A DNA stretch of 53,777 nt from Candidatus Nanoarchaeia archaeon (GCA_035289905.1 DATDVT010000026.1:1-53777); one strand, 5' to 3'; counted from the first letter of the stretch, positions 7,348 to 44,532 are shown. The notes: generated by a model from the sequence alone, not told the origin. Made by a program: numbers and translations.

Positions 7348-7382
7348 TTGTTTAAAATAAATTAGTTTAACTAATAAAGTTT

Positions 7383-7587
7383 ATGTAGTACCTTAAAAAG
7401 GTACTTTTGGAATATTTATTTATTATTGGTTTTTTTATAGCTTATCTGCAGATCCTGTTGAAGCACAAGAGTTTCTCAAGAAAACGATAAGCAAGAGAAA
7501 ACCAAAGTATATCCAAACTGATGCTGGAATGTTTTATTCTTTAAGTGACGTTAACTTTACAGCTCAGCTCAAGGTCATTGTGATATA
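7383..7587 (+). pseudogene. Gene debris: disrupted 5' end of a pilin-like gene (paralog of 53677..), running in frame into a transposase-like fragment
   Basis: ATG-TAG at 7383-7388. 7397-7420 (AAAGGTACTTTTGGAATATTTATT) matches 53686-53709 at 23 of 24 positions, and TAAAGTTTA recurs upstream of both. The frame then reads KGTFGIFIYYWFFYSLSADPVEAQEFLKKTISKRKPKYIQTDAGMFYS...* with no usable start. The A..FLkk....kP..I.TD pattern recalls DDE (IS6-like) transposases; this is from memory and weak. Confidence 0.35.
7388..7404. repeat. Perfect 17-nt palindrome GTACCTTAAAAAGGTAC
   Basis: 7-bp arms GTACCTT/AAGGTAC with a 3-nt centre. It sits inside the debris at the left composition-switch gap. Confidence 0.8.
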
Positions 7588-7673
7588 AAAAACTATTCTG
7601 CTAAAAAAATTAGTGATTCTTTTTCTAAATAGACTATTATACCACAAGTTAATATTATTTTCAAGAGAATAAC

Positions 7674-7681
7674 TTTATAAA
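7674..7681 (+). promoter_or_regulatory. TATA box for top6B
   Basis: TTTATAAA centred about 28 nt upstream of ATG 7706. Confidence 0.5.
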
Positions 7682-7705
7682 GGAATTATTTTTTTGTCAA
7701 GGATA

Positions 7706-9337
7706 ATGGCAGAAAAAGTAGCAGCAGAGTTAATGGCAGAGAATCAAAGAAGTATTTCTGTTTCAGAATTTTTTGCAAAGAATAGACATCTTTTAGGTTT
7801 TGATAATCCTTTAAAGGCATTAATGACTACTGTAAAAGAAGGAGTTGATAATTCTTTAGATGCAGCTGAGGAAGCAGGAATTTTACCAAGTTTAAAGATA
7901 GAAATATATGCTGTTAAAGATAGAGAAGATAGATATATTATTATTGTCGAGGATAATGGTCCAGGTATTATAAAAGAGCAAATTCCTAATATTTTTGGTA
8001 AATTATTATATGGAAGTAAGTTTCATACTAAACGGCAGCAAAGAGGTCAACAAGGTATTGGAATTAGTGCTGCAGCAATGTATGGTCAATTGACTACAGG
8101 AAAAGGTATTAAAATAACTTCTAGAATCTCTAAGAATCATCCTGCACATTATTTTTATTTGCAATTGAATACTAATACCAATGAAGCTGAGATTGTTAAA
8201 AATGAGCAAGTTGAATGGGATAAAGAACATGGAGTTAGATTAGAAATTGAATTAGAAGCTAAATATCAAAAAGGTAAGAAGGGTGTTGAAGAATTTTTAA
8301 AACAAACTTCTGTTGCTAATCCTCATTGTATGATTGAATATTTGAGTCCATTAGGCGAAAAAATAATTTTTCCTAGATCCACTGATAAATTACCTAAACA
8401 AGGCAAAGAGATTAAACCTCATCCTTATGGTATTGAGTTAGGTATGTTAATTAATATGTTAAAGAGTTCTTCAGCTTCTACAATCTCTGGATTTTTACAG
8501 AGTGAATTTTGTAGGGTTAGTGATAAAGTTGCTAAAGAAATTTGTGATAAAGCTGGAATATATGAGAAATCAAGACCATCAACAATAGCTAGGAATGAAG
8601 TAGAACATTTGTTTGATGCAATGCAAAAAGTGAAAATAATGGCACCACCTACAGACTGTCTAAGTCCAATAGGCGAGCAATTATTAGATAAGAGTTTAAG
8701 AAACGAATATCAAGCAGAATTTTATACCGCTGTCACTAGAAGTCCTGTTGTTTATAGAGGTATACCATTCCAGATTGAAGTTTCAATGTGTTATGGAGGA
8801 GATTTAGAAAAAGAAGATTTGGTTAAAGTAATTAGATTAGCAAATAGAGTTCCACTTTTATATCAACAGGGTGCTTGTGGTATAAATAAAGCAATATTAG
8901 AAACTAATTGGAGAAGTTATGGTTTAAATCAAAGTAAAGGTGCATTACCTTCTGGTCCTTGTGTTCTTGTTGTGCATATAGCTTCAGTTTGGGTGCCTTT
9001 TACTTCAGAGAGTAAAGAGGCTATTGCACACTATCCAGATATAATTAAAGAAATGAAATTGGCTTTACAGGATTGTGGTAGAAATTTATCTAAGTACATA
9101 AGAAAGAATGTTAGAATTAAGGAGCAAAAAGAGAGAGCAAGTTTATTTGAGAAATATATTCCAGAGGTTGCTGTAGCAATTTCTAAATTAAGTGAATATG
9201 ATGTTAAAAAGATAAATGAAAAATTAATGATAGGATTAAGGAAAAATTTACCTCTTTTAGTTGGGATAAGTCATGAAAAATTAAGGAAAGAAATGGAACA
9301 TGGAGAAGAAAAACAAATCACCCTTGCAGAAAGCTAA
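7706..9337 (+). CDS. top6B: DNA topoisomerase VI subunit B
   Basis: GHKL ATPase motifs EGVDNSLDA and VEDNGPGI, then the transducer region. The ORF track starts at TTG 7694; ATG 7706 (MAEKVAAEL) is preferred. Confidence 0.93.
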
Positions 9338-10400
9338 AGAAGCCTTGGATGAATTAGGTAAGGATTTAGTTAAACAGATAAATAAAATAGAGAACCCAAC
9401 AATTAATTTACCAGTTAGAGGATTGAGCAACATTAATTATAATAAAACTAAAGGAACATTGGAGTTAGGAGATAAGATGGCTTCAAGGTCATTCTTTAAT
9501 TTGGGGCATGCTAAGAAATTTATGCAGACATTAGAGGTGGCTGCAGTTAGTAAGGAATTATTAAATGTTGGAAAACATGCATCTCTTAGAGATGTTTTTT
9601 ATCAAGTAAAAAGAACTATTCCACATACTAATATCAATATGGTTGATGATCAAGTTGAGACTGATTCTGCTTTGGAGGATTTAGAATTAATTACTGGTTG
9701 TTCTAGAGAACAGTTGAATGTTAATGCTAATAAAAATGGTTCTGTTGCTGGGAAAGTTGTAATTGAAGATAGAGGGGATACTATTGATTGGTCTAAGTTA
9801 GGTTCAGGCGGTTGGAGTATTCCTAGTAATGTTGAAGAAATTGAATTTAAGAAGGTTAATGCTAAATATTTATTATACATGGAAAAGGCAGCAATTTTTG
9901 AAAGACTTCTAGAAGATCGTTATTGGGATAAACAGAATTGTATTATTATGTCTTCACAAGGTCAGACAACAAGAGGTATTAGAAGATTATTACAGAGATT
10001 AAGTACTGAGCATGATATGCCTATTTATGTATTAACTGATCTCGATAGCTGGGGGCACTATATTTATTCTGTAGTAAAATATGGAAGTATTGCTTTAGCT
10101 CACATGAGTGAGCAGTTAACTATCCCTAGTGTAAAATACTTAGGTATAAGGGTGAGTGATGTTGAAGAATATGGTTTGCAGAAAAATTTAATTAAATTGA
10201 ATGAAAAAGATATTGCTAGATTAAATCAAATATCAGGTTATGATTGGTTTAAAGATCATCAAGGTTGGCAAAAAGAATTTAAGGCTTTTAAACAAATGAA
10301 GGCTAAAGCAGAGATTCAAGCTTTGAGTGCAAGAGGAATTAGTTTTATTTCTGATAAATATTTACCGGAAAAGGTAAAAAGGCAGGATTTCTTAGACTAG
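9300..10400 (+). CDS. top6A: DNA topoisomerase VI subunit A (Spo11 family)
   Basis: 366 aa. Catalytic-Tyr region LRDVFYQ and Toprim region [14 protein letters not shown]. Overlaps top6B by 38 nt. Confidence 0.93.
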
Positions 10401-10470
10401 TCTTTTGATTGTAAATATACTTTATAAATTCTTTATTAGCTTATTCATTAGAGGTTTAATCGAAATCAAA

Positions 10471-11001
10471 CTAGAGTAATTCCCTCTTAAGCATTTTATG
10501 AGCATTATTTATTTTTTTAAAAAGTTCAAGATCCCCTTGAGTCATGTCAGGATGATAGATTTTTGCTAGTTCTTTATATTTTTGATCTATAAGAGCAATA
10601 TCTGAAGAATCAATATCTACACCTAATGTTTCTCTAGCTTGAATACGCTGTTCTTCAATATCCTTATTTTCTGAAAATTCATCAAGGAATTCATTCATTG
10701 TTATTTTGTTTTCAATTAAATCATTAACTTTAAATTCAACTATTTTAGACACAACAAAGAGATTTTCAACATGATTTCTTGCTCTTTTATAATTATAATA
10801 TAAACGAGAATTTTCCATAAACCAGCAAACAGAGGCATGTGTATTCTTTAGAGCCATACTTTCTTCAAAGATTATATCATCTTCAGATACACCTATTTTT
10901 TTTAATGTTGCAATAATCTTGTTTCTATATTGAATAGCTCTTCTATCATGTGCGCTAGTTATTGGTAAAATCCCAAATTCATACCCTTTTATTGTTATCA
11001 T
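10471..11001 (-). CDS. Protein with a C-terminal J domain and an uncharacterised N-terminal domain
   Basis: 176 aa. C-terminus IDQKYKELAKIYHPDMTQGDLELFKKINNAHKMLK has the HPD tripeptide and J-domain helix II/III pattern. The N-terminal roughly 120 aa were not recognised. Confidence 0.7.
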   Translation of the reverse strand: MITIKGYEFGILPITSAHDRRAIQYRNKIIATLKKIGVSEDDIIFEESMALKNTHASVCWFMENSRLYYNYKRARNHVENLFVVSKIVEFKVNDLIENKITMNEFLDEFSENKDIEEQRIQARETLGVDIDSSDIALIDQKYKELAKIYHPDMTQGDLELFKKINNAHKMLKRELL

Positions 11002-11048
11002 TGTTAAAGATTGAATAGAAAGTTTTTTAAAACTTGGCTTTTAGAATT

Positions 11049-11318
11049 TCAATTTTTGTATATATTATCATGATGGTCAAAGTCATCAAAATTGATTTCT
11101 TGTTTTTCTTTATTAAATTGAAATATTAATACAAAATAGTTAATATGTACTCTTTTTGAATCTTTTAATTTATATTTTAAATTTTTATAATGTTCTATGT
11201 TATAAGAATTAACAATTTCATTAATTTTATTTAGTAATTGTTCATAAAGAGTTTTGTCTTTTTTAGAAAGTTTGCTCATTATTTCTTTTAAATTTTCACT
11301 TATTTGTGCCTTGTACAT
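11049..11318 (-). CDS. RelE/ParE-superfamily toxin (type II TA)
   Basis: 89 aa. Size, position immediately downstream of a 78-aa partner, and the pattern ...KKDKTLYEQLLNKINEI...HYKNLKYKLKDSKRVHINYFVLIFQ are typical of RelE/YafQ-like toxins. Confidence 0.65.
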   Translation of the reverse strand: MYKAQISENLKEIMSKLSKKDKTLYEQLLNKINEIVNSYNIEHYKNLKYKLKDSKRVHINYFVLIFQFNKEKQEINFDDFDHHDNIYKN

Positions 11319-11326
11319 TAAACCTC

Positions 11327-11563
11327 TTAGCTCGTTATTTTTCTTAGCTCTTCAATTGAACTAAATTTTATGTACTTACCTTTTCTTATTTTTTCTAATT
11401 TTTCTATATATTCTGGTCTTAATTCTGGTTCTAGAATGGTTTCTTCATATTGTTTTACTATTAAGTCAATTGCTTGAGATTTATCATTAAATCCGAACTT
11501 TGCTTTGACTATGTTAATTACTCTATTTGTGTTTTCTTCAATATTTATCATAGCTTGTACCAT
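11327..11563 (-). CDS. Small antitoxin-like protein (DUF2683-like)
   Basis: 78 aa, 8 nt upstream of the toxin ORF. IEENTNRVINIVKAKFGFNDKSQAIDLIVKQYEE resembles archaeal DUF2683 antitoxin-like proteins (from memory). Confidence 0.55.
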   Translation of the reverse strand: MVQAMINIEENTNRVINIVKAKFGFNDKSQAIDLIVKQYEETILEPELRPEYIEKLEKIRKGKYIKFSSIEELRKITS

Positions 11564-11613
11564 ATTATTTCACGTATATAACTATATATTCCATATATAT
11601 AAGCTTTACTATT

Positions 11614-11658
11614 TATGTGTCTACATTAAATCTAATTTATTTATTATTGTAGATGTAA
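11614..11658. repeat. Copy A of a ~45-nt element: inverted repeat GTCTAC / GTAGA around a 24-nt AT-rich spacer
   Basis: TATGTGTCTAC-(N21)-ATTGTAGATGTAA, ending at the Fic stop codon. Same architecture and spacing as copy B (12562..12606). Confidence 0.6.
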
Positions 11659-12555
11659 TTAAAAAAATAATTTGTTTTCTTTAAAATTTTTAATTAAATA
11701 TTCTATAAATAGCTTTAAATTGCCTTTTTGTGCTTCTTCTAATGATTTGTAATATTCATATTTTGTGGAGTTACTTATACTAATCATTGAAAACTTGTTT
11801 TTATGCAAAATAAAATTCATTAATAATCTTCCAACTCTTCCGTTGCCATCAACAAATGGATGAATTATTTCAAAACCTGCATGAAAATATGCTGCTGTGA
11901 CTAAAGGATGTAATTCATCTTTATTTTTTGTGTACCATTTTAATAAAGCGCCTATTTCTTTTGGAACTATTTCTGGTTGTGGAGGTAGCCAATTTGTACC
12001 TCTAATAAATACTTGAAGTTTTCTAAATTTGCCTATTTGTGTTTCTAATTCAGGTTTTAATGTATTAATAACTACTAATTTATGCAATTCTAAGATAAAT
12101 TCTTTGTTTATATCTTCTTTATAACTTAATGAGAAATCAAATGCTTTTTTATGATTTACAATTTCATTAATTTCTCTTAATGTTTTTCTAGGTGTAATAT
12201 TTTCAAATAATAATTGGGCTGTTTCTTGTAAATTTATTGTATTACCTTCTATGGCTGTTGAGTTATAAGTAAAATTAGAGATAAATGCTTCATATCTATT
12301 TTCTAGGGTTTCTTTCGGTTCTTGTGAGTATTTTTCTTTGATTTTTTTTAAAAATTCTAGATCTTCTTTTGTTAGTAAAGTATTTAGTAATTGCATTTTT
12401 TTGTCAGCTTCTTTTTCAGCTAATTTTAATTCTTCTTTCTTTAAATCTTTGCCCATATATCTTCTTTTTTTTGTTATTTTATTGTTTTTTCTTATTGAAA
12501 TAGTTCTGTAATAGTATTTTTTGTTATTTTTCTCTTTAATTTCAGTATATACCAT
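11659..12555 (-). CDS. Fic family protein, class II (internal inhibitory motif)
   Basis: 298 aa. Active-site HPFVDGNGRVGR, and an upstream STAIEGN that fits the (S/T)xxxE(G/N) autoinhibitory helix. Confidence 0.9.
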   Translation of the reverse strand: MVYTEIKEKNNKKYYYRTISIRKNNKITKKRRYMGKDLKKEELKLAEKEADKKMQLLNTLLTKEDLEFLKKIKEKYSQEPKETLENRYEAFISNFTYNSTAIEGNTINLQETAQLLFENITPRKTLREINEIVNHKKAFDFSLSYKEDINKEFILELHKLVVINTLKPELETQIGKFRKLQVFIRGTNWLPPQPEIVPKEIGALLKWYTKNKDELHPLVTAAYFHAGFEIIHPFVDGNGRVGRLLMNFILHKNKFSMISISNSTKYEYYKSLEEAQKGNLKLFIEYLIKNFKENKLFF

Positions 12556-12561
12556 AATAAT

Positions 12562-12606
12562 TATACGTCTACTATATTTATAAATCTTTCTTTATTGTAG
12601 ACGTAA
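12562..12606. repeat. Copy B of the ~45-nt element; its arms bracket the Fic TATA box
   Basis: TATACGTCTAC-(N21)-ATTGTAGACGTAA. The 8-bp arms ACGTCTAC (12565-12572) and GTAGACGT (12597-12604) are perfect reverse complements. TTTATAAA at 12577-12584 lies about 25 nt upstream of Fic ATG 12555. Confidence 0.65.
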
Positions 12607-12650
12607 GAATGATTAGATAGCTTTAAATGGTTTTTTAATGGATTTTAATT

Positions 12651-13145
12651 ATGATACTTGTAAATTTGTTAGATTTATGGACAGAACAAAAAGTAGAATA
12701 TATTTTAGCTGGAGGTCAAGCTTGTGTTTTGTATGGTGTTCCTAGAATGACTTTTGATATAGATTTATTACTAAATTTAACTCAAGAGAATCTAGAAAGA
12801 TTTGTTAAAGTTCTTGATCCATATGGTTATAGACCAAAAATTCCTATTTCTTTATTAGATTTAAAGGATAAAGATTTAGTTAGTTCTTGGATTAGTCAGA
12901 AAAATATGAAAGCATTGAATCTTTCTTCAGAAGCTAATCCTGAAATAGATGTTTTATTGGATGTTCCTGTAACCTATGAATCTGCAAAACTAAATTGTGA
13001 ATATAAATCTTTTAGATCTATAAAAATACCTTTATTAGGATTAGATGATCTTATACTTTGTAAGAAGGTAGCAGGCAGGCCACAAGATTTGTCAGATTTA
13101 AAGGCTTTAGAATTGATTAAATATAGAAGGTGGAAAGATGAATGA
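12651..13145 (+). CDS. Nucleotidyltransferase-fold protein (DUF6036/MNT-like)
   Basis: 164 aa. ILAGGQACVLYGVPRMTFDIDLLL fits the minimal NTase GG..a...G..R.T.DiDl pattern. Confidence 0.6.
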   Translation: MILVNLLDLWTEQKVEYILAGGQACVLYGVPRMTFDIDLLLNLTQENLERFVKVLDPYGYRPKIPISLLDLKDKDLVSSWISQKNMKALNLSSEANPEIDVLLDVPVTYESAKLNCEYKSFRSIKIPLLGLDDLILCKKVAGRPQDLSDLKALELIKYRRWKDE

Positions 13146-13308
13146 TCAAGGAGAATTTACTATTGAAGAGATCATTGAATTTTCTAAGTTAACTATAGAA
13201 GAAAGATTACTATGGGTAGAAAGAACTTATGATTTTGTAATGGAAGTTATGGGTGAAGAGGGAAGGAAGAATTTTAATTATTTAAGACATCTTAATGACA
13301 ATTACTAG
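13138..13308 (+). CDS. Small companion ORF overlapping the nucleotidyltransferase gene (56 aa)
   Basis: ATG 13138 overlaps the upstream stop by 8 nt. Translation MNDQGEFTIEEIIEFSKLTIEERLLWVERTYDFVMEVMGEEGRKNFNYLRHLNDNY. Below the ORF-track length cutoff; read by hand. Confidence 0.45.
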   Translation: MNDQGEFTIEEIIEFSKLTIEERLLWVERTYDFVMEVMGEEGRKNFNYLRHLNDNY

Positions 13309-13659
13309 TTCTATACTTAATTTTATTAATTTGAAAAGAGGAATGAGAATATGCAACTTGATCATTGTATTTATGCAATTTTAAATCCTTCTCAGTTGGC
13401 TTATTTTTGTAAAAGATTTAATTTTAGCTTTTAGAAGAAATATGTGGAAAATATATTTGAATTTAAATGTTGAAAGTTTAAATTTATTTTATACTTTAAA
13501 TGAGATTACTGGAATTATTCGATAAAAAGAAGAAAAAGAGATAGGATATAATGGTTTGAATTTTACTGAATCTATGAACTTGTATGTTTTTAGGTTAGAA
13601 GAAATCGATAAAAGACTATTTTGAATATATTTTTAAAGAATTTTGTTATTGTAACTTTA

Positions 13660-15042
13660 ATGTTTAATGAAGTTAAGTGGGATAAAGAATTAAGAAAGGT
13701 AATGGTTAAAAGGGGCATTCAAGAGTATAAGCTAAACGCAGGTTTAAAATATGATGAGCAATTAATTAAAAGATTAGATAAAAATTTAACAGATTCAAGT
13801 AAAAAAGTTTTAAAAAATAAAGTAAATAGAAATTTATTTTTGAATTGTTTAGATTTAAGTTTAAGTGATAAATTAGGAAGATTAAATATAGAGTTTTATA
13901 AGAATAGAAATATGATAATTAAGAATAAATATTGCAACTGGAGTAGTTGGAGACAGTTCGCTAGTAATTCTAGGAGTCCTAAATTAAGGAAAGAAGTTTT
14001 CGACGATTTTTTAAAAAAATCTGTAAAACTTAAAAGTAATGTAAAAAAAAGAACAGAGATTGTTGCTAAAGAATATGAAAAATATAATTTAAATGTGGTT
14101 GATTCTTATTGTGAACAGAATTTTTTAACTAAAATTCAATTAAAGAATGTTTTAAAAGAATTAAATGTTAAAAAACAATTTAACAGAGAAATAGAATTAT
14201 TTATGCAAGAAAAATTTAAAAAAGGCTTTGAATATTATGATGATTTATATTATGTTAGAAATGTTTTATTTGATGATTTTAATATAAAAAATGATCCAGT
14301 AAAAGAATGTGACCAAGTTTTTAAAAAAATGGGTTTTGATTTGAAAAAAATAAAAATAGATGATAAAAATAGAAAAAGTAAGACTGCGACAGCTTGTTGT
14401 TTTGGCATTGATCCTGGAAAGGATGTTAGAGTTATGTACAAGAGAGAAAACGGAATAAATGACTTTTCTTCAGTATTTCATGAATTAGGGCATGCTATAC
14501 ATTTTTATGTAATGGATAATCCTTTGTGGTGGAAAAGAAGTTTTGTTCCAAATTCTGTTGCTGAAGTTTTTTCAATTTTAACTGAGAATATATTCTTTGA
14601 TAAGAATTTTTTAAGTAAATATAATTTAGATGTTAATTTGTTAGATAAAAGAAGAAAACTAAACGAAATGTATTTTTTAGCGTTTTATATTCCAAATTCT
14701 TTAGTAAAAATAGAATATTGGGAAGGAAAAATTAAATTTGATGAGATTTCTTCTAGATACTCAGAATTGATTAAAGAGTATATGGGTGTGGATTTAAACG
14801 GGAATTATTGGTTATTACACCATATTTTACCAGAAGAAATCATTTATTGTCCAAGTTATATAATTGCTTCTGTTAGGGTGTTTGAATTAATTAATATTTT
14901 AAAGAAAAAGCATGGTAATGAATGGTGGAATGATAAAGAATCTGGTTATTATTTAAGAGAATTAATGCGATGCGGAGTTGATATTGATTTAGGATTTAGT
15001 AAGTTAGATACTAGTTATTTTAGGAGTGTAATTGATAATTAG
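13660..15042 (+). CDS. M3-family (oligoendopeptidase F-like) zinc metallopeptidase, short form
   Basis: HELGH (FHELGHAIH) with a Glu 24 residues downstream of the second His (NSVAEVF), the gluzincin spacing. The ORF track starts at TTG 13621; the first in-frame ATG is 13660. Confidence 0.7.
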   Translation: MFNEVKWDKELRKVMVKRGIQEYKLNAGLKYDEQLIKRLDKNLTDSSKKVLKNKVNRNLFLNCLDLSLSDKLGRLNIEFYKNRNMIIKNKYCNWSSWRQFASNSRSPKLRKEVFDDFLKKSVKLKSNVKKRTEIVAKEYEKYNLNVVDSYCEQNFLTKIQLKNVLKELNVKKQFNREIELFMQEKFKKGFEYYDDLYYVRNVLFDDFNIKNDPVKECDQVFKKMGFDLKKIKIDDKNRKSKTATACCFGIDPGKDVRVMYKRENGINDFSSVFHELGHAIHFYVMDNPLWWKRSFVPNSVAEVFSILTENIFFDKNFLSKYNLDVNLLDKRRKLNEMYFLAFYIPNSLVKIEYWEGKIKFDEISSRYSELIKEYMGVDLNGNYWLLHHILPEEIIYCPSYIIASVRVFELINILKKKHGNEWWNDKESGYYLRELMRCGVDIDLGFSKLDTSYFRSVIDN

Positions 15043-15083
15043 TTTTGGATCTTTTTGTGAAGTTAATTTATTTGAGTGAGAAG

Positions 15084-15407
15084 TTAGGTTCTAATTAAAA
15101 CAGTTGCTCTGTATATTCCTGTTTGTTTATCTTTATGACGACCGTAAAGTTGTTTGGAAATGACTACTTTAGCTTTGAATATTCTTTTTATTTTTGGAGC
15201 TAATGTTGATCTGGCAAATTTTTGTGAGGAAATATAAATATCTATTCCTGTTTTTAGTTTTTCTTCTTTTGAAATCCAAATTTGAGGATATTTTTTAATT
15301 TGTTGATATATAAAATCATAGATTGTTTGTTTATATGGTCTTAACTGGATTTTTGCTTCATAATACATACAATGCTTAGATGCAGTAGATTTGACAGTGA
15401 GGGACAT
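15084..15407 (-). CDS. NMD3-like domain protein (short)
   Basis: 107 aa. YYEAKIQLRP ... GIDIYISSQKFARS ... ISKQLYGRHKDKQTGIYRATVLIR follows the NMD3 core pattern (fEA.iQlR ... G.D.y ... S.kL.G ... yR.T.lvR). The real start may be the internal Met at 15368. Confidence 0.5.
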   Translation of the reverse strand: MSLTVKSTASKHCMYYEAKIQLRPYKQTIYDFIYQQIKKYPQIWISKEEKLKTGIDIYISSQKFARSTLAPKIKRIFKAKVVISKQLYGRHKDKQTGIYRATVLIRT

Positions 15408-15672
15408 TTTTAAAATAAACTATATTTTCTTCATTAATAAGGTTTAGCTTTTTTGCAAGTTTAATTATATTTTTTCCGATTATATTTATATTAGGACATT
15501 CTTGTAATAAAATTGCTGCTTTTTTTTCATTACAAAGTTGACCTTTATAAAATTGTTCTGATATGTTTATTTCTATTATTTTATCCTTTATTTTTTTTCC
15601 AATTAGGTTTTCATCAGCTATTGCTATTACGTATGATCTAATTGATTCGTGGGTTTTTATATAAAATTTCAT
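15376..15672 (-). CDS. DUF424 (COG2412) family protein
   Basis: MKFYIKTHESIRSYVIAIADENLIGKK...FYKGQ...NIIGKNII...NVPHCQIY matches the archaeal DUF424 pattern, and this family commonly neighbours aIF2-beta. Start moved to ATG 15672. Confidence 0.7.
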   Translation of the reverse strand: MKFYIKTHESIRSYVIAIADENLIGKKIKDKIIEINISEQFYKGQLCNEKKAAILLQECPNINIIGKNIIKLAKKLNLINEENIVYFKNVPHCQIYCI

Positions 15673-16067
15673 TTTATTGGGGTTTGGGTGCCACAAGCAC
15701 TACATTTTAGATATGTTTTATTTTCTTTTTCTATAATTTGTGTATCAGGTTTTTTGCATATTGAACATATTACATAGTATTCAGTGTATTGTTGTATTTT
15801 TTGGTTGATTAGTGTGGAAGAGATTTTTCTTCCTAAAATTAATGAATTACTTTCTAATTTTCCTGGACTTGCTAATTCTTTTAGAAGATATTTTAAAAAA
15901 TGTTGTTCATTTCTTCTTAATGTTTGTGCAATTTGGTGGAAATTTATGATTACTGTTTTATTTCCTTGGATATGACCTTTTGCTTTAGGCATTTCAAATC
16001 TTTCTGTTTTAATTATTTTCTCAGGTAAATTTTTTATTCCACGTTCAAGCATTTCTTTATAATTCAT
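15669..16067 (-). CDS. eif2b: Translation initiation factor 2 subunit beta
   Basis: MNYKEMLERG...KTVIINFHQIAQTLRRNEQHFLKYLLKELASPG...YVICSICKKPDTQIIKENKTYLKCSACG: aIF2-beta core plus the C4 zinc ribbon. The 74-aa N-terminal extension in the ORF track is rejected. Confidence 0.9.
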   Translation of the reverse strand: MNYKEMLERGIKNLPEKIIKTERFEMPKAKGHIQGNKTVIINFHQIAQTLRRNEQHFLKYLLKELASPGKLESNSLILGRKISSTLINQKIQQYTEYYVICSICKKPDTQIIEKENKTYLKCSACGTQTPIK

Positions 16068-16099
16068 AAATATTTTAAGGAGTGAAGGATTTATAAATC

Positions 16100-16282
16100 T
16101 TATAGTCGTCCTTGAATAGACTTTTTTGCAAGTTTGAATTGTAATAATACAAATAAAATTGCTAATATTCCTATTCCTGAAAGGATAAGTGATTTTGGTG
16201 AATTCAAGGTAATTGTTAAAATAATTCCTAAAATTAATAAAAGAATTCCAGTAATTAGCGAGCCTGTTGCTTTTAATCTCAT
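16100..16282 (-). CDS. Small 2-TM membrane protein
   Basis: 60 aa with two hydrophobic helices. A/C-ending codon bias (ACA, ATC, CTA, TTC) matches minus-strand genes of this block. Confidence 0.45.
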   Translation of the reverse strand: MRLKATGSLITGILLLILGIILTITLNSPKSLILSGIGILAILFVLLQFKLAKKSIQGRL

Positions 16283-16314
16283 TCTCCATCCAGCTAATTT
16301 GTAACTTGTGGATA

Positions 16315-16533: not shown

Positions 16534-16562
16534 AAATTATATATATACTTTATAAATCTTTT

Positions 16563-21109: not shown

Positions 21110-21130
21110 GATTAAAAAATAAGGCTTTCT

Positions 21131-21141
21131 TTTTTAAAATT
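21131..21141 (-). promoter_or_regulatory. TATA-like box for mcm
   Basis: ATTTTAAAAA on the minus strand, centred about 27 nt upstream of ATG 21109. Confidence 0.45.
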
Positions 21142-21171
21142 ATTTGTGTTATTAATAAGTAAAAGAAATGA

Positions 21172-26829: not shown

Positions 26830-26850
26830 TAAATTAATTTCTTTTTTTAT

Positions 26851-36096: not shown

Positions 36097-38580
36097 ATGT
36101 TTTATCTCCTAAGAAAGAGAATTGTTTTAGTGTTAGCTTTTTTATTAGTTATACCTTTTGTTTCTGGGTTAAGTTTTCCTTCTTTAATAAGTACATATAA
36201 TCAATTTTCTGGTTGGTTAGATTTTTTAATATTTTTTTTAATATTCTTTAGTTTGCCTAAAATTGTTTTTAAGAAGCATTTTGAGGGCGAAGAATCAGGG
36301 GCATTTAATGCTTTGTGTTTAGGCATTGGTCTGGTTTTAAGTTTTGCTATGTTGGGATTGGAATATTATTTCGGAGTTAATATTTTTAGTTTTGGTCCTT
36401 TGGCAATTCTTGTTTTGGTGCTTGCAGTTTTATTACCTTTAATTGGGTTGTTTAAGAAAGAAGGTGAAGGGGGAAGTAATAGATGGTTAGCTTTTTTGAT
36501 AATTTTGTTAATAATTCTGTTAGCAGTTTGGTTTTTTTATCCTGAATTATTGACATATATTCCTTACGGTGATGACCTTTGGTGGATTTTGATAGTTATT
36601 ATCGGTCTAATTTTGTTGCTTTTATTATTGAAGGGGGTATCTAAGCATGTTAAATGGCCTGAGTGGAGCAGGAAAGAGAAACGACCTGATTATAGTAAGG
36701 AGGGATTGTCTCCTTATGATGGTTCTTCTGCTGGTGTTGAGAGAGAACCTTTTAAGCACGGGGATTTGGTCGATAATAAAACTGGACAACCTAATAAAGA
36801 AGACAAGGTTTTAGGTTATTCTAAATTAAAAATAAAGATAGAGTTTAAGCCTTCTAAGAGAATTTTTGGGGATACAGAGGATTTTGTTGTTGTTTCTAAT
36901 GTTAATGGCGGTTCTGGAGATTATGTATACCAATGGTCTTTACCTGGATTAGCTGGTGTAATTTCTGATAAACCGTATGTTCAATTAAGTGGACGTAATT
37001 TTCCTTTACCTTCAGGTAAAGATAAGATTGAATATGCAATTGAATTAGTGGTCAGGGATAACACTACCGGGAATCTTGTTAAGGCTGTTAGTAGGTTTAA
37101 GATTAAGAGGATGGATATTTTTACTAAAGAGAAGATTGGTATTGTTGTTCAGGATATGATTGATGGCCGGTCTTTGCAAGAGGGTAGTAAATTTATACAG
37201 CTTAGAGATCCTATTTTTGTTGCTTCTAATGGTGGTGATTTGTTAATAAGTGCAGTAATCAGTGGGGGTTATGTTGTTGGAGAGCATGATATTGTTTGGG
37301 ATGTAGGTGTCCCTTTGGGTGTAAGAACGAAGGCAGAGTCTTTTATTTTTAATAGTGGTGATTGGGGCTTTGGTAAGGGATTTTTTACTGGTAAACAAAA
37401 AAATGAAGAAACTAAGACAATAGGGTTAAAGGTAAGGTATAAGGGAAAACTTGTTGAGAAGGCTTTTAATTTAGTGTTGTTGAAAAGAGAGCATGAAGAT
37501 CATGTAAAGATTAAGATTGATAAGCCTATTTCTCAGGACTTTGCTATTGGTGAACAGATTGAGTTGTTGGCTAGGGTTGAAAGAGATGATTATAGTGTTG
37601 TTGAAAAGATTGTTTGGTATTATATGTTTGGGGGTTTAAAGGGTTTTAATAAGAAGAGTTCTAGGCCAATAATGGTTTCTAATGTAGTACTTGAAACTGA
37701 TAGCGGTGTTTCACAAACTGTAGTTTTGCCAGTTATAAAGGAAGGATCTTATGTTATTTATGCTGTAGCTAAGGGTACGGGTGGAATAATTGATAGTGAT
37801 TATGATAGGGTTCTTGTTAATTTTTTTACTAATAAATTAGAGATAATTAAACCAAAGAATTTGAGTAGGCATTTTAATCATAATATATTGGATTTAGAAT
37901 GCGATTTTAGAGATTTTACAGGAAGGATTCAGTTTTTGCAATGGGTTTTGTTTGATTCTACAGGAAATAATGTTATGAAAGATAATAATGGGAATCCCAT
38001 GGTAGTGATGGATGATTTATTAAAGATAAGTGGAAAACAAGGTTTGAAGGTTGCGATACCAAAACAGTTAGATATTAGTGATCTGGATTCTGAAGTTTAT
38101 GTTGTTGCTTTATTTGCTTTGAATAGTTCAAATGATATATTTGATCAAAAAAGGGTGAGAATTAGGGTTGAAAAACCACAGAATCCTGTATTGAAGATTG
38201 TAGAACCAGAGGTTCGTAAGAGAATTACACAGGGTTATGTGCCTGGAGAATCTTTAAAGTATAGGATTAAGTTGACTGATCCAGATAAAATATGTAGTCC
38301 TTCTTTATTTGAATGGGAAATATATGATATAAATGGAATGCGTATTCCAATTAAATTATCTTCTGTTAAGGGAGGAACTTTTGTTATACCTAAAACTATG
38401 CCTTTCGGAAATTATACGTTAATGGTTAGTGCTGTGAACGTTAGAGTTAAGTCTAGTTTTAAGGGTTATTATACTGGAGAGATTGATAGAAAAGATTTAT
38501 TACCCTTTAAAGATAAAGTTGATTTTGTTGTTAAGAATCGTTTAGTTAAGATAAGGAGAATAATATGGCCGAACCCTTAA
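36097..38580 (+). CDS. 827-aa protein: N-terminal multi-TM anchor related to the 4741..6431 family, followed by a roughly 640-aa array of beta-sandwich repeats
   Basis: TM region aa 1-185 contains GWLDFLIFFLIFFSLPKIVFKK...GAFNALCLGIGLVLS (family signature). The remainder is repeated modules beginning (L/V)KI..P and ending G.Y.(L/I).V (e.g. LKIVEPEVRK...GNYTLMVSAV). Confidence 0.8.
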   Translation: MFYLLRKRIVLVLAFLLVIPFVSGLSFPSLISTYNQFSGWLDFLIFFLIFFSLPKIVFKKHFEGEESGAFNALCLGIGLVLSFAMLGLEYYFGVNIFSFGPLAILVLVLAVLLPLIGLFKKEGEGGSNRWLAFLIILLIILLAVWFFYPELLTYIPYGDDLWWILIVIIGLILLLLLLKGVSKHVKWPEWSRKEKRPDYSKEGLSPYDGSSAGVEREPFKHGDLVDNKTGQPNKEDKVLGYSKLKIKIEFKPSKRIFGDTEDFVVVSNVNGGSGDYVYQWSLPGLAGVISDKPYVQLSGRNFPLPSGKDKIEYAIELVVRDNTTGNLVKAVSRFKIKRMDIFTKEKIGIVVQDMIDGRSLQEGSKFIQLRDPIFVASNGGDLLISAVISGGYVVGEHDIVWDVGVPLGVRTKAESFIFNSGDWGFGKGFFTGKQKNEETKTIGLKVRYKGKLVEKAFNLVLLKREHEDHVKIKIDKPISQDFAIGEQIELLARVERDDYSVVEKIVWYYMFGGLKGFNKKSSRPIMVSNVVLETDSGVSQTVVLPVIKEGSYVIYAVAKGTGGIIDSDYDRVLVNFFTNKLEIIKPKNLSRHFNHNILDLECDFRDFTGRIQFLQWVLFDSTGNNVMKDNNGNPMVVMDDLLKISGKQGLKVAIPKQLDISDLDSEVYVVALFALNSSNDIFDQKRVRIRVEKPQNPVLKIVEPEVRKRITQGYVPGESLKYRIKLTDPDKICSPSLFEWEIYDINGMRIPIKLSSVKGGTFVIPKTMPFGNYTLMVSAVNVRVKSSFKGYYTGEIDRKDLLPFKDKVDFVVKNRLVKIRRIIWPNP

Positions 38581-41500
38581 TTATTAATGTAAAGATTGGA
38601 GAGGGAAAAAACGTAGAGGTTTTTTATTCTGATAGTTCTAATTTGGTTGCTAAGGTTGGTTTTATTTATAAAAAGGTTGATGAAGAGTTTTGGCATAAAG
38701 AAATTTCTGAAGTTAAGTCTTCAAAACAATTGTTTGATTCTTGGAAGGAAAAAGAAACTGTAAAAATGGTTAAGTTAAATATTTTATTTGATGAACATTT
38801 TAGTGGAGCTTATGAGTATAAGGTTGCTTTATTTAATTCAAATGAAGAGGTTTTAGTAGAATCAGATGACAGTTGTTTTTTTGTAATGCCAGAGAGTGAT
38901 TTAGGTTTAAAAATAATTTCACCAAGGGACGTTATTGAAGATAATAATGGAAAGATTGGTTTACAACAAGGATTGAATTTTGTTTATGATTTAAAGGGAT
39001 TGTCTCCTTTGAGTTCTAATGTTTTTGTTAGGTGGTTTTTAGTTGAAGGGGATTATGTTGATAATGGATTGTTTAGTGAAGGGGGATTGATTAAGAACAA
39101 TAAAGTAAAATTTCTTTTTGATTCAGATACAAAAGACTTAGATAAATTTAAGCGTTATTCTTTAGAAGATTTTGATATTACTAATAAAGGGATTTATACT
39201 TTAATTGTTGGGGTTTTTAAAGAAGAAATTATTGAATCTAATTTAATAGATCAAGATAGTATACTCTTAGATGTTGTAGATAGTGATTTAAATGTAAAAA
39301 TGAAAGTGATTGAGGTTGTTGATTCGATAACAAGAGAAAAAATATATTCTGTTTTAAATAATAAGGACATAATAAAATTGAGAGATGATATTGACTATCA
39401 GTTTTATCTGGAGATAGAAGATAGTGTTGGTGTTCTTGAGAATATTGGTATTGGATATAATGGGAGATATAAAACCATTTCTGCTTTAAATAAAGAGTTT
39501 ACTCTTAAGTTTGATTCGCCTTGGGTTGGGGAAAGAATAGTAGAGATTTCTCCAATTGGTTTAAATGGGAATTTAGTTGGAGAAATTTTTAGGTTTATAG
39601 TTCTTTGTGAGGAGGGTGATAGGAATGGAGTGAGGTTTAAGTTTTTAGCTTATAAAGATCTTTTAGGGAATAATGTTACTAGGCTCTTAAAGGAGAATAG
39701 TAATAATTTTATTTCAAAACAACTTTATGAGGTTGGGGTTAATGTTTTTAATTTTAGTGGAAATGTTGAGGCTGTTGAATTTGGTTATATTGTAAATAAT
39801 TTAGAGGAGCCTTTATTTCTTGTAAAACCTATAAGTGTTCTTAAAGGTAGTGCAGGGGATATTTCTTTTCCTTATGATTTTAGTGCTTTGAATTGGAGGG
39901 GAGATTTAATATTGTATGTTAGGGGGGTTTTGGGATTAAGGAAAAATAGTATTAAGTATACAACACCAAGTTATATAAAAATTAGTACTTCTGGCGTTGA
40001 GGTTTATTTATCTGATTATAGAACGGGTTTAAAACCTTATGGTGTAAAATTTGGTCAGATTCTTTCTTTAAATGTTAAGGTTGAAGATCCTTCAGATAAA
40101 GTAGGTTCAGTTGTTTTATGGTATCAATGTAAAGATAAGGGAGAGTTTGTAGTAGCTGTTGATTATCCTGAAGGGGATGTACTTAATGAGGGTGAAAATT
40201 TAGTACGAAGGATTGGGAGTAAGGATTTTTCTATTGATTGGAGTGTTAGTTGTGATGATGATTTTTTGTTAATTGTTAGAGCGTATGGTAAGGGGGATAA
40301 AACTAATGTTTTAAATGAACAAAGGATTAATTTTGAATTATTAGAGGTTGTAAGTGTTATAGTTAAGTTTTTGCATAATTTAAATTCTGAGGGTATTTAT
40401 GAGGTTCCATTTGGAGACTTTAATTTAGTTGTTGATTATGATAATAGTGTTGGTTTAGCTGCTGAAGTTTATATTAAATATGATAATTATTTTTTAGGAA
40501 GGATTTCTATACCTAAGGGAAAGAATAGACTAGTTTTACCTTATAATTTTAAATTGTTGAGGGGCTGGGATGGGGAGAGAAAATTTGTTACACAATGTGT
40601 GGATAGTAAGGGGTATCTTGTTGGTAAGGGAGATGTTCTTAGGGTTAAATTGATTGATAAAAAACTTTCTGAATCTACTAAAATTGAATTAAATAGTGTG
40701 AATGCTAAAAGATTTGATGATTATTATTTATTAAATAAAAGGGTTGGTGAGAATTTATTTAAATTAAAGATAGTTAATAAAGATAAAGATATAGATAGAA
40801 TTGTTTTGGGAGAGGTTATGGGTGGTGGTATTTTTGAACTTCTTGGTGTTGTTTTTGATAAAAATAAACATGTGCAGATTTTAGATGTAGAGGATATTTT
40901 TGATTTATGGTGGGATGGTAATAAAGAGGTATGTTTTGTTGGTTATGATAAAAAAGGGATTGTTAGTACAAATGTTGTTAAAGTGATTTTAAGGTTGCCT
41001 GAGACTAATGTGAAATTAGTTGGTTTAAATGATATTAAGGTTATTAATAAGGGTGAGAGGTATGATATTTATAGTCTAGAGAATGAATACAGGGTTGTTG
41101 TAGACGATAAAAGGGGAATAATAGATCAAGTTAGATTTGGTTGGTTTGATGAATTTGGTTATAATGTTTATATTGATCTGAAAAAAGATAGAATGTTTAA
41201 ATATGAATTTAGGGCTAAGGAATTATGGTCTGGTGATAAGGATTGTTATATAGTTGGCGTAGATAATAATCGTAAATTTGTTGGACCGGTTTTTAATTTT
41301 ATTTTAAGGAGATATTCAGAGGATGATTTAGCTTTAATGTTGAGGGAAAAATATTTGGCTAGATATCTTTGGTGGGGGAGTAAAAATCAATACTCGAGCG
41401 AAGATTTGTTAGCTATTGATCTAGGTGTTGTGTTATTACAGAGTTTTTTTAGTTCTTTAAAAATTAATCAAAAAAATATTTACGGAGAATTGGTTTTGGG

Positions 41501-42191
41501 AGGCAATTTAGAATTAAAAAAATTTCAATATTTTAGTATCTTAAAAAAAGCAGTTGAATTGTTTAAATTAAGTGACTTTAGAGTTTATCTTAGAGATAAT
41601 TCAATTAGGTTATTAAAAAATGGAGAATATTTATCTGAATCTGAAATTGTTATAGATGAGGGTGTAGAGGAATCTATAGTGAATTTATTAATTGGGGCTA
41701 ATGTTTATTATATTCAGTTAGTTTATAAGACAGTTGAAAAGGGTGAATGGTCTTTTGGATTGTATCAGCCAAAATACAACGGTGAAAGGGGGATTGTTGG
41801 ATTGCATTTAGATATTGATGTTTCTATTTTAAAAGAAGAGGGGCAGCTGTTAGTTAATTTTATTCCTTTAGGGGAAGATAGGCTTGTTATTGGTGGTGGT
41901 CTTGATTGTTTGAGAATAAAATTTATAAAGGGAAAAGAAGTTAGTATAAACTATGATTTGTTGAGCGATAGGTTCATTCAGAATTATTCTGATGCTATGT
42001 TTGAATATTTAGGTGATGAAGAGTTGAATGGAGCTAGTGTTGGGGAGTTTATTAGTGATGAATTTAATAAGGATGATAGTATTTCTTTAAATGAACAGTT
42101 GATGGATGCCTTAGGGCAAAAAAATATAGAGTTAGGTCTTGTTGAGCTTAATATTTTGATTGATAAAATTGTTGAGAAGCTTAGAAAATAG
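38565..42191 (+). CDS. 1208-aa protein with no signal peptide or TM: at least 7 beta-sandwich repeats of the same type plus a roughly 300-aa helical C-terminal region
   Basis: ATG 38565 overlaps the upstream gene by 16 nt and is preceded by AAGGAG (38553-38558). Modules such as LKIISPRDV...GIYTLIVGVF resemble those of 36097..38580. The C-terminus (LREKYLARYLWWGSK...) is helix-like. Confidence 0.8.
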   Translation: MAEPLIINVKIGEGKNVEVFYSDSSNLVAKVGFIYKKVDEEFWHKEISEVKSSKQLFDSWKEKETVKMVKLNILFDEHFSGAYEYKVALFNSNEEVLVESDDSCFFVMPESDLGLKIISPRDVIEDNNGKIGLQQGLNFVYDLKGLSPLSSNVFVRWFLVEGDYVDNGLFSEGGLIKNNKVKFLFDSDTKDLDKFKRYSLEDFDITNKGIYTLIVGVFKEEIIESNLIDQDSILLDVVDSDLNVKMKVIEVVDSITREKIYSVLNNKDIIKLRDDIDYQFYLEIEDSVGVLENIGIGYNGRYKTISALNKEFTLKFDSPWVGERIVEISPIGLNGNLVGEIFRFIVLCEEGDRNGVRFKFLAYKDLLGNNVTRLLKENSNNFISKQLYEVGVNVFNFSGNVEAVEFGYIVNNLEEPLFLVKPISVLKGSAGDISFPYDFSALNWRGDLILYVRGVLGLRKNSIKYTTPSYIKISTSGVEVYLSDYRTGLKPYGVKFGQILSLNVKVEDPSDKVGSVVLWYQCKDKGEFVVAVDYPEGDVLNEGENLVRRIGSKDFSIDWSVSCDDDFLLIVRAYGKGDKTNVLNEQRINFELLEVVSVIVKFLHNLNSEGIYEVPFGDFNLVVDYDNSVGLAAEVYIKYDNYFLGRISIPKGKNRLVLPYNFKLLRGWDGERKFVTQCVDSKGYLVGKGDVLRVKLIDKKLSESTKIELNSVNAKRFDDYYLLNKRVGENLFKLKIVNKDKDIDRIVLGEVMGGGIFELLGVVFDKNKHVQILDVEDIFDLWWDGNKEVCFVGYDKKGIVSTNVVKVILRLPETNVKLVGLNDIKVINKGERYDIYSLENEYRVVVDDKRGIIDQVRFGWFDEFGYNVYIDLKKDRMFKYEFRAKELWSGDKDCYIVGVDNNRKFVGPVFNFILRRYSEDDLALMLREKYLARYLWWGSKNQYSSEDLLAIDLGVVLLQSFFSSLKINQKNIYGELVLGGNLELKKFQYFSILKKAVELFKLSDFRVYLRDNSIRLLKNGEYLSESEIVIDEGVEESIVNLLIGANVYYIQLVYKTVEKGEWSFGLYQPKYNGERGIVGLHLDIDVSILKEEGQLLVNFIPLGEDRLVIGGGLDCLRIKFIKGKEVSINYDLLSDRFIQNYSDAMFEYLGDEELNGASVGEFISDEFNKDDSISLNEQLMDALGQKNIELGLVELNILIDKIVEKLRK

Positions 42192-43246: not shown

Positions 43247-43308
43247 TTTTAGTTTAAGATTGTTTTATATTTAATAAAATTTATTAATGTAGAAAAATAA
43301 ATAGTTTT

Positions 43309-43914
43309 GTGATATTAAAAAAGAGCTTTAAGCATGGATGGTTTTATATGTATAGATTACATAAAGATAAAATAGATCATTTGTGTTGTGATGAACTAAA
43401 TAATTATTTGTTTGATGTTTTACATAATTGTGATGATGAAAAATTTTGTAATGGTCCAAGGAGTAGCGCTTTAAGATTTGATTTAGGGATTAATGTTAAA
43501 GAGGTATTGAATCATGAAGTTTGTGGTTTGACTTCTAGGGGATTAGAGGAAAATTTTGAGAGGTTTAAGACAGCACATTCACAAGTTCAAGTTTATATGT
43601 TAGAAAACGATGATAAGACTATTGGTGTTGAGGTTCCTGTTTGGTTTGAGAAGGAAGAAATGAACACTTTTAAGAATATTTTTGGTGGATGTGGCGGTGT
43701 TTTGAGTGGACATATCGATATTTTAAGGGTAGATAATGAAAAGGTTTGGGTTTTGGACTATAAACCTAATGCTTATAAAGAGAAGTATGCTGCTACACAG
43801 GTTTATTTCTATGCTTTGATGTTAAGTGCTAGAACTGGGATTTCTTTGAATAAATTTAGATGTGGTTATTTTGATTCTTCTAGGTGTTACATATTTAAGG
43901 CAATTTTAGAATAA
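43309..43914 (+). CDS. PD-(D/E)XK nuclease-superfamily protein (RecB/Cas4-like core), Cys-rich N-terminus
   Basis: GHIDILRVDNEKVWVLDYKPN...ATQVYFYALML fits the D...(D/E)xK...QxxxY core. Cys residues are at CCDE...HNCDDEKFC and C-terminal FRCGYFDSSRC. The start is GTG 43309; the first in-frame ATG is 43348. Confidence 0.55.
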   Translation: MILKKSFKHGWFYMYRLHKDKIDHLCCDELNNYLFDVLHNCDDEKFCNGPRSSALRFDLGINVKEVLNHEVCGLTSRGLEENFERFKTAHSQVQVYMLENDDKTIGVEVPVWFEKEEMNTFKNIFGGCGGVLSGHIDILRVDNEKVWVLDYKPNAYKEKYAATQVYFYALMLSARTGISLNKFRCGYFDSSRCYIFKAILE

Positions 43915-43944
43915 CTTTATTACTTTATTTAGTTTTATTTGTAT

Positions 43945-44385
43945 ATGAATTTTTTATTAATTGTTTTTGTAGTATGGATTGCAATGATTGCTCATTCTTT
44001 TTGGGAGGCATCGGTTGAAGGAAAAAACGCTTGGGATAAGAATAAATATGGCTGGAAGTGGAGATTTGCTAAGAATATCTCTCTAACAAGATATCATTTT
44101 TGGTTGTTTGTTATTTATTTGCCTATATTAATTATTCTATTACCAATTGTTATTGTTGGATTTAGTTGGAAATTATTTGGGATTCTAAGTAGTGCTTACT
44201 TTTCAGGAATGGTAATAGAAGATTTTTTTTGGTTTGTTGTAAATACTGAGATTAAATTTAAAGATTCTTGGAATCCTAGCTTTGCTAATTATTATCCTTG
44301 GTTAGTTATTGGGCGATTTAGGATTCCTGTTTATTATTTAGTGGGTATTGGTATTGCTGTTTTGTTTTGGATATTTTTTGTTTAG
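43945..44385 (+). CDS. 4-TM membrane protein, Trp/Phe-rich, function unknown
   Basis: 146 aa from ATG 43945 (the ORF track uses TTG 43939). Its TAG stop lies inside the TTTAGGACAGA motif. Confidence 0.55.
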   Translation: MNFLLIVFVVWIAMIAHSFWEASVEGKNAWDKNKYGWKWRFAKNISLTRYHFWLFVIYLPILIILLPIVIVGFSWKLFGILSSAYFSGMVIEDFFWFVVNTEIKFKDSWNPSFANYYPWLVIGRFRIPVYYLVGIGIAVLFWIFFV

Positions 44386-44392
44386 GACAGAA
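44382..44392 (+). promoter_or_regulatory. Copy 2 of motif TTTAGGACAGA, followed 2 nt later by TTATATAAAA
   Basis: Identical 11-mer to the other two copies. It lies at the right composition-switch gap, about 140 nt upstream of topA. Confidence 0.5.
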
Positions 44393-44532
44393 CTTATATA
44401 AAAAATCTATCTATATTGTCTTTCTAATCATAAAACTTATAGTTTTTAACAATTAATTAAAGTTAATTATTTATAGTCTATTTTAAATAAATTAACATAA
44501 CCTTTTTATAGTTTATCTCTAAAAATCAATAA

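Follow-up and report, generated by a model that had tools for sequence, protein, structure and literature searches.

Replication-linked strand asymmetry is classic in bacteria and is also known from some Euryarchaeota and from the DPANN archaeon Ca. Forterrea (PMC5905446; survey in PMC7111523), with a bacterial-type cumulative skew being documented in a minority of archaea (PMC5905446; PMC7111523). Aberrant cumulative-skew patterns flag inversions or misassemblies (PMC7111523), and a staggered-break model has been proposed for inversions flanked by inverted duplications (PMC1885836). A full-text literature search for Woesearchaeota with GC skew returned nothing relevant. Here we describe the silent-site strand composition of a 53,777-bp stretch assigned to a Candidatus Nanoarchaeia archaeon (GCA_035289905.1, DATDVT010000026.1:1-53777; the whole stretch is hereafter the window), which is in its entirety a MEGAHIT metagenome contig (ena:ERZ4903055:k141_2960465), and in which the segment from topA to map has been inverted.

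The window resembles replication-linked skew systems in having a G/T versus A/C bias that is strongest at silent sites, independent of transcription and of mirror amplitude in opposed segments. It departs from known archaeal skew in its unusually high amplitude (a GC3 skew, i.e., G/C skew at third codon positions, of about +/-0.5, with single genes reaching 0.8-1.0), and in that it is known from a 54-kb fragment with no origin or terminus placed. A parallel might also be struck with inversions within a replichore, wherein the old skew is kept after the flip, the sign changes lie in intergenic gaps and the gene order is reversed relative to relatives. Unlike the typical skew-reversal inversion, two apparently independent events adjoin here and mimic a larger one, and the event that can be resolved is small (9.2 kb) and lies in a flank.

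Strand composition at silent sites

Third-codon-position bases were tallied per gene, always on the + strand, and keto skew was calculated as (G+T-A-C)/N. Based on these counts the window falls into the following blocks:

1-7347, block L, + strand A/C-rich at silent sites: RNase H, 95-aa, 244-aa and 392-aa proteins, TraB, PRC, three paralogous membrane proteins (191, 192 and 178 aa), 183-aa and 120-aa proteins. Pooled over 11 genes (356-7347): GC3 skew -0.50, keto skew -0.25.
7706-44385, block C, + strand G/T-rich at silent sites: genes including top6B/A, DnaJ-like, Fic, DUF6036, M3 peptidase, NMD3, eIF2-beta, OB-fold, MCM (2 inteins), TBP, IleRS, RFC-S/L, a 1307-aa intein-bearing protein, TRM5, 827-aa and 1208-aa proteins, FEN1, PDDEXK and a 146-aa protein. 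Pooled over 30 genes (7706-44385): GC3 skew +0.53, keto skew +0.29.
About 44386-53598, block R, + strand A/C-rich, ends ambiguous within repeats: about 100 nt of old topA-upstream spacer, topA (+), radB (-), 217-aa (+), 141-aa (-), cdc48 (+, with intein), 87-aa (+), 61-aa (+), and map (-) with its promoter. Pooled over 8 genes (44533-53553): GC3 skew -0.48, keto skew -0.36.
53677-53777, + strand: 5' end of gene Z, encoding a protein that begins MNKKGSFGIFITITT; the skew is G/T-rich again.

The observed pattern is real and far beyond chance. In a two-factor regression of GC3 skew, block has an effect of +/-0.52 and gene strand one of +/-0.21 (R2 0.89), and C differs from its flanks with a Mann-Whitney p of 7e-9. 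The sign is independent of the strand on which a gene lies, the sole discordant gene of C being the DnaJ-domain open reading frame (ORF) at 10471-11001 (GC3 -0.24), and non-coding DNA has the same signs as the silent sites, albeit more weakly. An earlier note on this DNA, which read codons by eye, had claimed just such an orientation-independent flip, with A/C-rich flanks and a G/T-rich center on the + strand. The per-gene skew bears this out at both gaps, and the two hand counts offered as illustration (45421-45480 in topA, A31 T13 G3 C13; 27001-27060 in rfcS, A20 T26 G10 C4) are exact.

The right switch is very sharp: the cumulative keto skew reaches its maximum at 44386, and the best change point falls at 44520. 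For G/C the left switch is abrupt, with GC3 skew passing from -0.75 (6985-7347) to +0.59 (7706-9337) and the cumulative GC skew having its minimum at 7345; for A/T it is diffuse, with a weak TA3 skew (T/A skew at third codon positions) over about 3-11 kb and an all-site change point at about 9.5 kb. After map the sign returns to G/T-rich, as gene Z, of which 84 codons were recovered from the sister contigs L029-L031, has a keto skew of +0.36 (A25 T45 G12 C2).

A mosaic of this kind might be ascribed to horizontal acquisition of the blocks from compositionally different genomes. The top6B-top6A pair is indeed 87% identical in nucleotides to contigs with unrelated neighborhoods, and Fic, DUF6036 and insertion sequence (IS) elements lie near the left end. 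However, GC content is alike along the whole contig (about 28%). Further, L, C and R are housekeeping blocks with orthologues 57-85% identical in the same relatives, whose blocks carry the same skew sign in the corresponding orientation, and a foreign origin would not give mirror-image skews of equal amplitude. This explanation is thus highly improbable.

Inversion of the topA-map segment

The two closest relatives found through topA, namely contigs L017 (topA 85%) and L019 (topA 81%), share the order SerRS - Metallophos - 231/243 aa - topA+ radB- ... cdc48+ ... map- 149/147 aa- PDDEXK- FEN1+ 1250 aa-. BLASTP identifies their 149/147-aa, PDDEXK, FEN1 and 1250-aa proteins as orthologues of the window's 146-aa, PDDEXK, FEN1 and 1208-aa proteins (54-85% identity), and the right end of block C is syntenic with both, in reverse. 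Contig L057 (topA 61%) retains LigT-Hef-SerRS-Metallophos followed by topA-radB-cdc48, and the outgroup L069 (RIFCSPLOWO2_01_FULL_28_39, a metagenome-assembled genome, MAG, from GTDB) has radB- cdc48+ map- ... FEN1+ ... TRM5+. Hence, map lies on the 146-aa/PDDEXK/FEN1 side in L017, L019 and L069, and SerRS-Metallophos (block S) lies beside topA in L017, L019 and L057; in the window topA adjoins the 146-aa gene and block S is absent.

These comparisons show that the topA-map segment (~44386-53598, 9.2 kb) was inverted in place, its ends being J2 (between the 146-aa gene and topA) and J3 (between map and Z). Given that map adjoins the 146-aa gene and S adjoins topA in the relatives, the right switch (44386-44532) pairs with a breakpoint past map (53588-53611) and not with the left switch. 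The inversion is placed in the lineage of the window because the skew of L017 is uniform over all 21 genes spanning both equivalent junctions (keto -0.19 to -0.48), R is discordant in sign with both its neighbors, C and the G/T-rich Z (+0.36, from 84 codons), and the tail of the 146-aa gene sits beside map. R thereby combines a sign change at both ends, a gene order reversed relative to the outgroup, reproducible junctions and repeats at the breakpoints. The latter, along with a related motif elsewhere, are as follows:

44376-44393, + strand, repeats at J2: TTTTGTTTAG at 44376-44385, the 10 nt with which the 146-aa gene ends, and TTTAGGACAGAAC at 44381-44393, which overlaps it.
53588-53611, - strand, repeats at J3: CTAAACAAAA at 53588-53597, the reverse complement of the 146-aa tail, followed by GCTCTGTCCTAAA at 53599-53611, which is the 13-nt motif reverse-complemented.
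21784-21796, - strand: the remaining copy of the 13-nt motif (three in all), lying upstream of TBP at a distance of about 70 nt.

The 10-mers TTTTGTTTAG and CTAAACAAAA are each present once in the window (counted on one strand). CTAAACAAAA lies directly upstream of the map promoter, matching the site where the 149-aa gene ends in L017, and homology to the junction of the 149-aa gene with map in L017 extends to 53596; it is thus the footprint of a former adjacency of the 146-aa gene and map. A 13-nt inverted repeat (12/13 matching) is formed by TTTAGGACAGAAC at 44381 (+) and TTTAGGACAGAGC at 53599 (-). Its motif, TTTAGGACAGARC, occurs three times in the window versus 0.13 expected, a number reached in 0/100 shuffles, with every copy lying in intergenic or promoter DNA, namely the two at R's ends and the one by TBP. 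The stretches preceding TBP and map are alike over 45 nt, and the motif is absent from all relatives' loci that were examined; it may therefore belong to promoters instead of serving as a recombination site.

The inversion could have come about by exchange between short inverted repeats, i.e., the unique 10-bp pair TTTTGTTTAG/CTAAACAAAA and/or the 13-bp TTTAGGACAGARC, or by staggered breaks with fill-in, which would duplicate a short stretch at both ends (the model of PMC1885836); the sequences at the ends fit both routes and cannot separate them. The perfect 10-bp and overlapping 13-bp (12/13) repeats at the ends of R, with the 3' end of the former neighbor at both, are as in staggered-break inversions. 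In contrast to the Drosophila cases, the repeats are far shorter, the host is an archaeon, and the mechanism is proposed from sequence alone.

The near-perfect 13-bp inverted repeats exactly at both ends of R, and the over-representation of their motif, could also be taken to mean that R is a programmed, site-specifically invertible segment of reversible orientation, with TTTAGGACAGARC as the recombinase site. However, contigs from about 20 samples show one orientation alone, and Pfam detects no recombinase or integrase domain in or near R, nor among the ORFs of the window. The relatives lack the motif, the resemblance of its TBP copy's surroundings to the map promoter suggests a regulatory element, and frequent flipping would wipe out the full-strength skew of R. 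Such a programmed switch is therefore very unlikely.

In the earlier note the simplest reading was a single 37-kb inversion of the center within one replichore, with breakpoints in 7348-7705 and 44386-44532. This reading accommodates the like sign of the two flanks and the opposite sign of the center, as well as the gene debris that the note reported at the left junction, which is indeed present in the form of a decayed ORF. It predicts, however, that the 120-aa gene was ancestrally adjacent to the 146-aa gene and top6B to topA. Upon comparing the relatives for an inversion of 7.7-44.4 kb, neither adjacency was seen in any of them; what they show instead is map beside the 146-aa gene (L017, L019, L069), S beside topA (L017, L019, L057) and the 120-aa gene beside a type II/IV secretion ATPase (L053, L058; below). 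Moreover, the footprint of the 146-aa tail sits beside map, the sign flips back past map, and no inverted repeat links 7348-7705 with 44386-44532, the repeats at J2 pairing with 53588-53611 instead. Thus, a rearrangement of the inversion type stands, but a single 37-kb event with those two breakpoints does not, and can be regarded as most improbable. Long inverted repeats or IS copies joining the left junction to J2 were also sought, and none was found.

The left junction as a separate breakpoint

The left switch and the debris within it are:

7348-7705, no strand, J1: left sign switch; homology to L053 ends at 7381, and homology to the region upstream of top6B in L033 starts at 7567.
7397-7588, + strand, Z' debris: decayed ORF without a start codon, reading KGTFGIFIYYWFF...DPVEAQEF.

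Block L could be located through TraB in two relatives, L053 (an ERR78500xx relative, TraB 79%) and L058 (a distant NCBI MAG, GCA_053531575.1, TraB 57%). Both have the order 244 aa - (405 aa) - TraB - PRC - three or four paralogous membrane proteins - 181/171 aa - 120/124 aa, after which comes a type II/IV secretion ATPase (T2SSE, PF00437), directly in L053 and with one extra gene between in L058; the skew sign is constant across the L blocks of both and into the ATPase. At the DNA level the window matches L053 up to 7381, and homology to the region upstream of top6B in two JGI contigs starts at 7567, leaving a lineage-specific filler of 185 bp (7382-7566) that holds the decayed ORF. Farther to the right, 13657-27792 is syntenic with the relative Rel-3, from M3 peptidase to RFC. 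Since L053 and L058 continue from the 120-aa gene to the ATPase without a sign change, J1 is a derived break in synteny, with a partner breakpoint that would lie outside the contig, and belongs to an event separate from the right switch. We infer that this event was either an inversion or a move between replichores.

The first 29 nt of the filler ORF (7397-7425) are near-identical to the start of Z (53686-53716), in the same orientation. Their alignment scores 45, whereas 500 shuffles reach at most 40 and the rest of the window at most 38, and the two proteins share KG(S/T)FGIFI along with a weaker DP..EAQ.F stretch. The filler could be a decayed paralogue, templated repair filler, or a sign that the partner breakpoint of J1 lies near Z. 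No further Z-like copy or paralogue was found in the window or at the relatives' loci, and an exact-pattern scan for Z in viral contigs gave no match. Candidate homologues of Z were also rejected: the genes upstream of topA in relatives (252, 243/231, 136 and 181 aa) have no similarity to it, and the extra 221-aa gene of L058, flanked by the 124-aa gene and the ATPase, was discarded likewise.

The region to the right of J1 has some features of its own. The top6B-top6A segment (7567-10406) is 87% identical in nucleotides (top6B 94% in amino acids) to Ga0209541_10000284 and Ga0209343_10000213 (L032/L033), whose flanks around top6BA are unrelated to the window on both sides and whose skew follows the gene strand, not replication. 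The window's own top6BA pair shows the full GC3 skew but nearly no TA3 skew. Gene transfer could account for this pattern, as could a location prone to rearrangement. An island of accessory type (10471-13308), situated between top6A and the M3 peptidase, codes for a DnaJ-domain protein, DUF2683, Fic and a DUF6036 nucleotidyltransferase, and synteny with Rel-3 begins only beyond it, at 13657.

The junctions in independent assemblies

The genes flanking each junction were used in exact-protein look-ups to retrieve contigs from other samples and pipelines. J1 (between the 120-aa gene and top6B) is spanned by at least 8 contigs and J2 by at least 5, and the map-upstream region (J3) is present in about 23; the junction-spanning contigs are 99.7-100% identical to the window, with no alternative arrangement among them. 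All three junctions are identical in the MEGAHIT, ANAN16/IDBA-type and JGI assemblies.

A chimeric join, or an inversion made by the assembler at repeats, might be suspected as the window is a MEGAHIT metagenome contig and many sister contigs stop at the IS remnant, in RNase H, at J1 (L004, L009) or in Z. Yet, the junctions recur in contigs of different samples and pipelines at the above identity, the repeats at the ends of R are merely 10-13 bp, far under assembly k-mers, and the nearest relatives of L and of C/R belong to the same ERR78500xx organism. Misassembly was accordingly rejected, and with it the chimeric assembly that the earlier note had left as an alternative; the chance that the junctions are artefacts is close to negligible. 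Integration of the tRNA or integrase type at the junctions was rejected as well, as the window has no tRNA genes and no recombinase domains.

Proposed history of the mosaic

The explanation that we regard as probable is a strong replication skew combined with two separate rearrangements, which together made the mosaic L(-) C(+) R(-) Z(+). Under it, replication would impose a strong mutational strand asymmetry that leaves the leading strand G/T-rich at silent sites, with an amplitude of about +/-0.5 in GC3 skew; each segment would keep the sign of its long-held orientation, and a recently flipped segment would stand out. The mosaic would have been made by at least two rearrangements in the window's lineage, in either order. 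One is the in-place inversion of R (9.2 kb), and the other would be an inversion ending at J1, or an inter-replichore move, that parted L from the secretion ATPase cluster and joined it via the 185-bp filler to the top6B end. Had the event at J1 inverted everything rightwards, the inversion of R would have brought R back into its original phase; had the L side been inverted instead, R would be the segment out of phase.

Several points weigh against this explanation. At the left, the partner breakpoint of J1 was not found, the similarity of about 30 nt between the J1 filler and Z is unexplained, TA3 skew is weak to either side of J1 (~3-11 kb), and top6BA, whose 87% nucleotide-identical counterparts lie in contigs with unrelated flanks, may have had a separate history. 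At the right, Z lacks homology to the genes that precede topA in relatives, and no contig runs through Z to reach block S (Metallophos-, SerRS-, Hef+), which is predicted to follow it. Finally, J1 has the polarity of an origin, in that the + strand turns there from A/C-rich into G/T-rich. Determining fork direction from strain-level single-nucleotide polymorphisms was abandoned, as the contigs, being 99.7-100% identical, offer too few of them.

The last of the above points raises the alternative that the left switch is a true replication origin with divergent forks, and that the right flank alone was inverted. The skew at J1 does go from the lagging to the leading type (GC3 -0.75 to +0.59, with the cumulative GC minimum at 7345), and with R restored everything rightward would be uniformly G/T-rich, giving a simple switch from minus to plus. 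J1 is followed on its right by replication genes (top6, mcm, rfc), and a bacterial-type skew with one origin has been documented in one DPANN archaeon (PMC5905446). Against this, Pfam found no orc1/cdc6 among the ORFs of the window, and about half of the J1 spacer is a decayed ORF. No repeats resembling origin recognition boxes (ORBs) occur in 7348-7705 and short repeats are at chance level in 6900-7800, though this is a weak test in the absence of a lineage-specific ORB consensus. The switch is also not conserved: L053 and L058 keep one sign across the junction of the 120-aa gene with the ATPase, and Rel-3 holds one strong sign for 10 kb to the left of the M3 peptidase gene, with no switch. 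Moreover, the prior expectation that a 54-kb window holds the origin of a genome of about 1 Mb is around 5%. An origin at J1 is thus rather unlikely. It is similarly unlikely, if not slightly more so, that J1 is an origin without adjacent orc1/cdc6 or ORB boxes that moved beside top6B, and/or that R is a recombinase-driven invertible cassette of essential genes (topA-cdc48-map).

Source population and neighboring features

By Pfam, the domains of the window's ORFs are those of archaeal housekeeping genes. The best topA matches are annotated as Candidatus Woesearchaeota/Nanoarchaeia, and the sister contigs come from the aquifer metagenome series ANAN16, JGI 33000021xx and JGI 33000253xx; the source is a low-GC, Woesearchaeota/Nanoarchaeia-type DPANN archaeon from aquifer metagenomes. 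As the 392-aa protein had no match in a scan of the GTDB species representatives, neither the species nor its near relatives are among these.

Toward the right the sister contigs all stop within 376 nt and toward the left within 832 nt, and on the right the contigs of the population all end inside Z, 87-376 nt beyond map. Across many samples the contig ends of this near-clonal population recur at the same sites: within 832 nt to the left of RNase H, inside RNase H (356-754), at the IS remnant, at 7662-7687, and inside Z 87-376 nt past map. At 7662-7687 the region upstream of top6B is 93% identical to that of a co-occurring species. Such recurrence suggests repeats or hypervariable regions at these sites.

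The IS remnant of block L is:

4150-4595, + strand: decayed IS200/IS605-type element with Pfam HTH_OrfB_IS605 and TnpB/Cas12f-like TNB fragments, between PRC and a 33-aa gene.

It is absent at that site in L053 and L058, and in one sample the TnpB found there is longer and better preserved. The JGI contig L043, which is 99.8% identical to the window, departs from it exactly at 4595 into AP_endonuc_2/SLT/OGG genes; 4595 is thus a strain-level structural polymorphism and independent evidence of ongoing rearrangement. A decayed IS605 in L beyond whose right end a 99.8%-identical strain differs recalls IS200/IS605-mediated rearrangement; unlike in such rearrangement, no IS copy lies at J1, J2 or J3.

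Intein load differs among close relatives. MCM (17219-21109) has 1296 aa here versus 678 aa in Rel-3, and CDC48 (48508-52173) has 1221 aa versus 749-760 aa in L017 and L019. The 1307-aa protein (29839-33762) has Intein_splicing and LAGLIDADG domains, and the top6B of two JGI contigs (L032/L033, 8276-11488) is interrupted near residue 48 by an intein that is absent here. Two large, overlapping ORFs of 827 aa (36097-38580) and 1208 aa (38565-42191) have no Pfam match; orthologues of the 1208-aa protein lie beside FEN1 in L017 (54% identity) and L019 (25%).

Skew itself varies across close relatives. It is uniformly strong in L017, patchy in L019 (1-16630), with genes ranging from -0.4 to near 0, and in Rel-3 (L050 1-21383) strongly G/T-rich leftward of the M3 peptidase, falling to near zero over the NMD3-RFC stretch. 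This unevenness may reflect other, older inversions that have partly re-equilibrated.

Implications

Skew reversal by inversion is a known phenomenon, and the window is a new instance of it that overturns nothing in current understanding. It cautions that two adjacent, unrelated events can pass for one large inversion, and that synteny with relatives alone separates them. The 9.2-kb inversion, resolved to the base, provides a natural archaeal example of inversion by what would be either short repeats or staggered breaks. In practical terms, silent-site skew can be used on metagenome contigs of this kind for checking assemblies, orienting contigs and detecting recent rearrangements.

As for the organisms themselves, at least some Woesearchaeota-type DPANN archaea have a bacterial-style and unusually strong replication strand bias. 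In addition, the presence of an IS-linked alternative adjacency in a near-clonal population (at least 99.7% identity) suggests rapid structural evolution in a small, symbiont-type genome.

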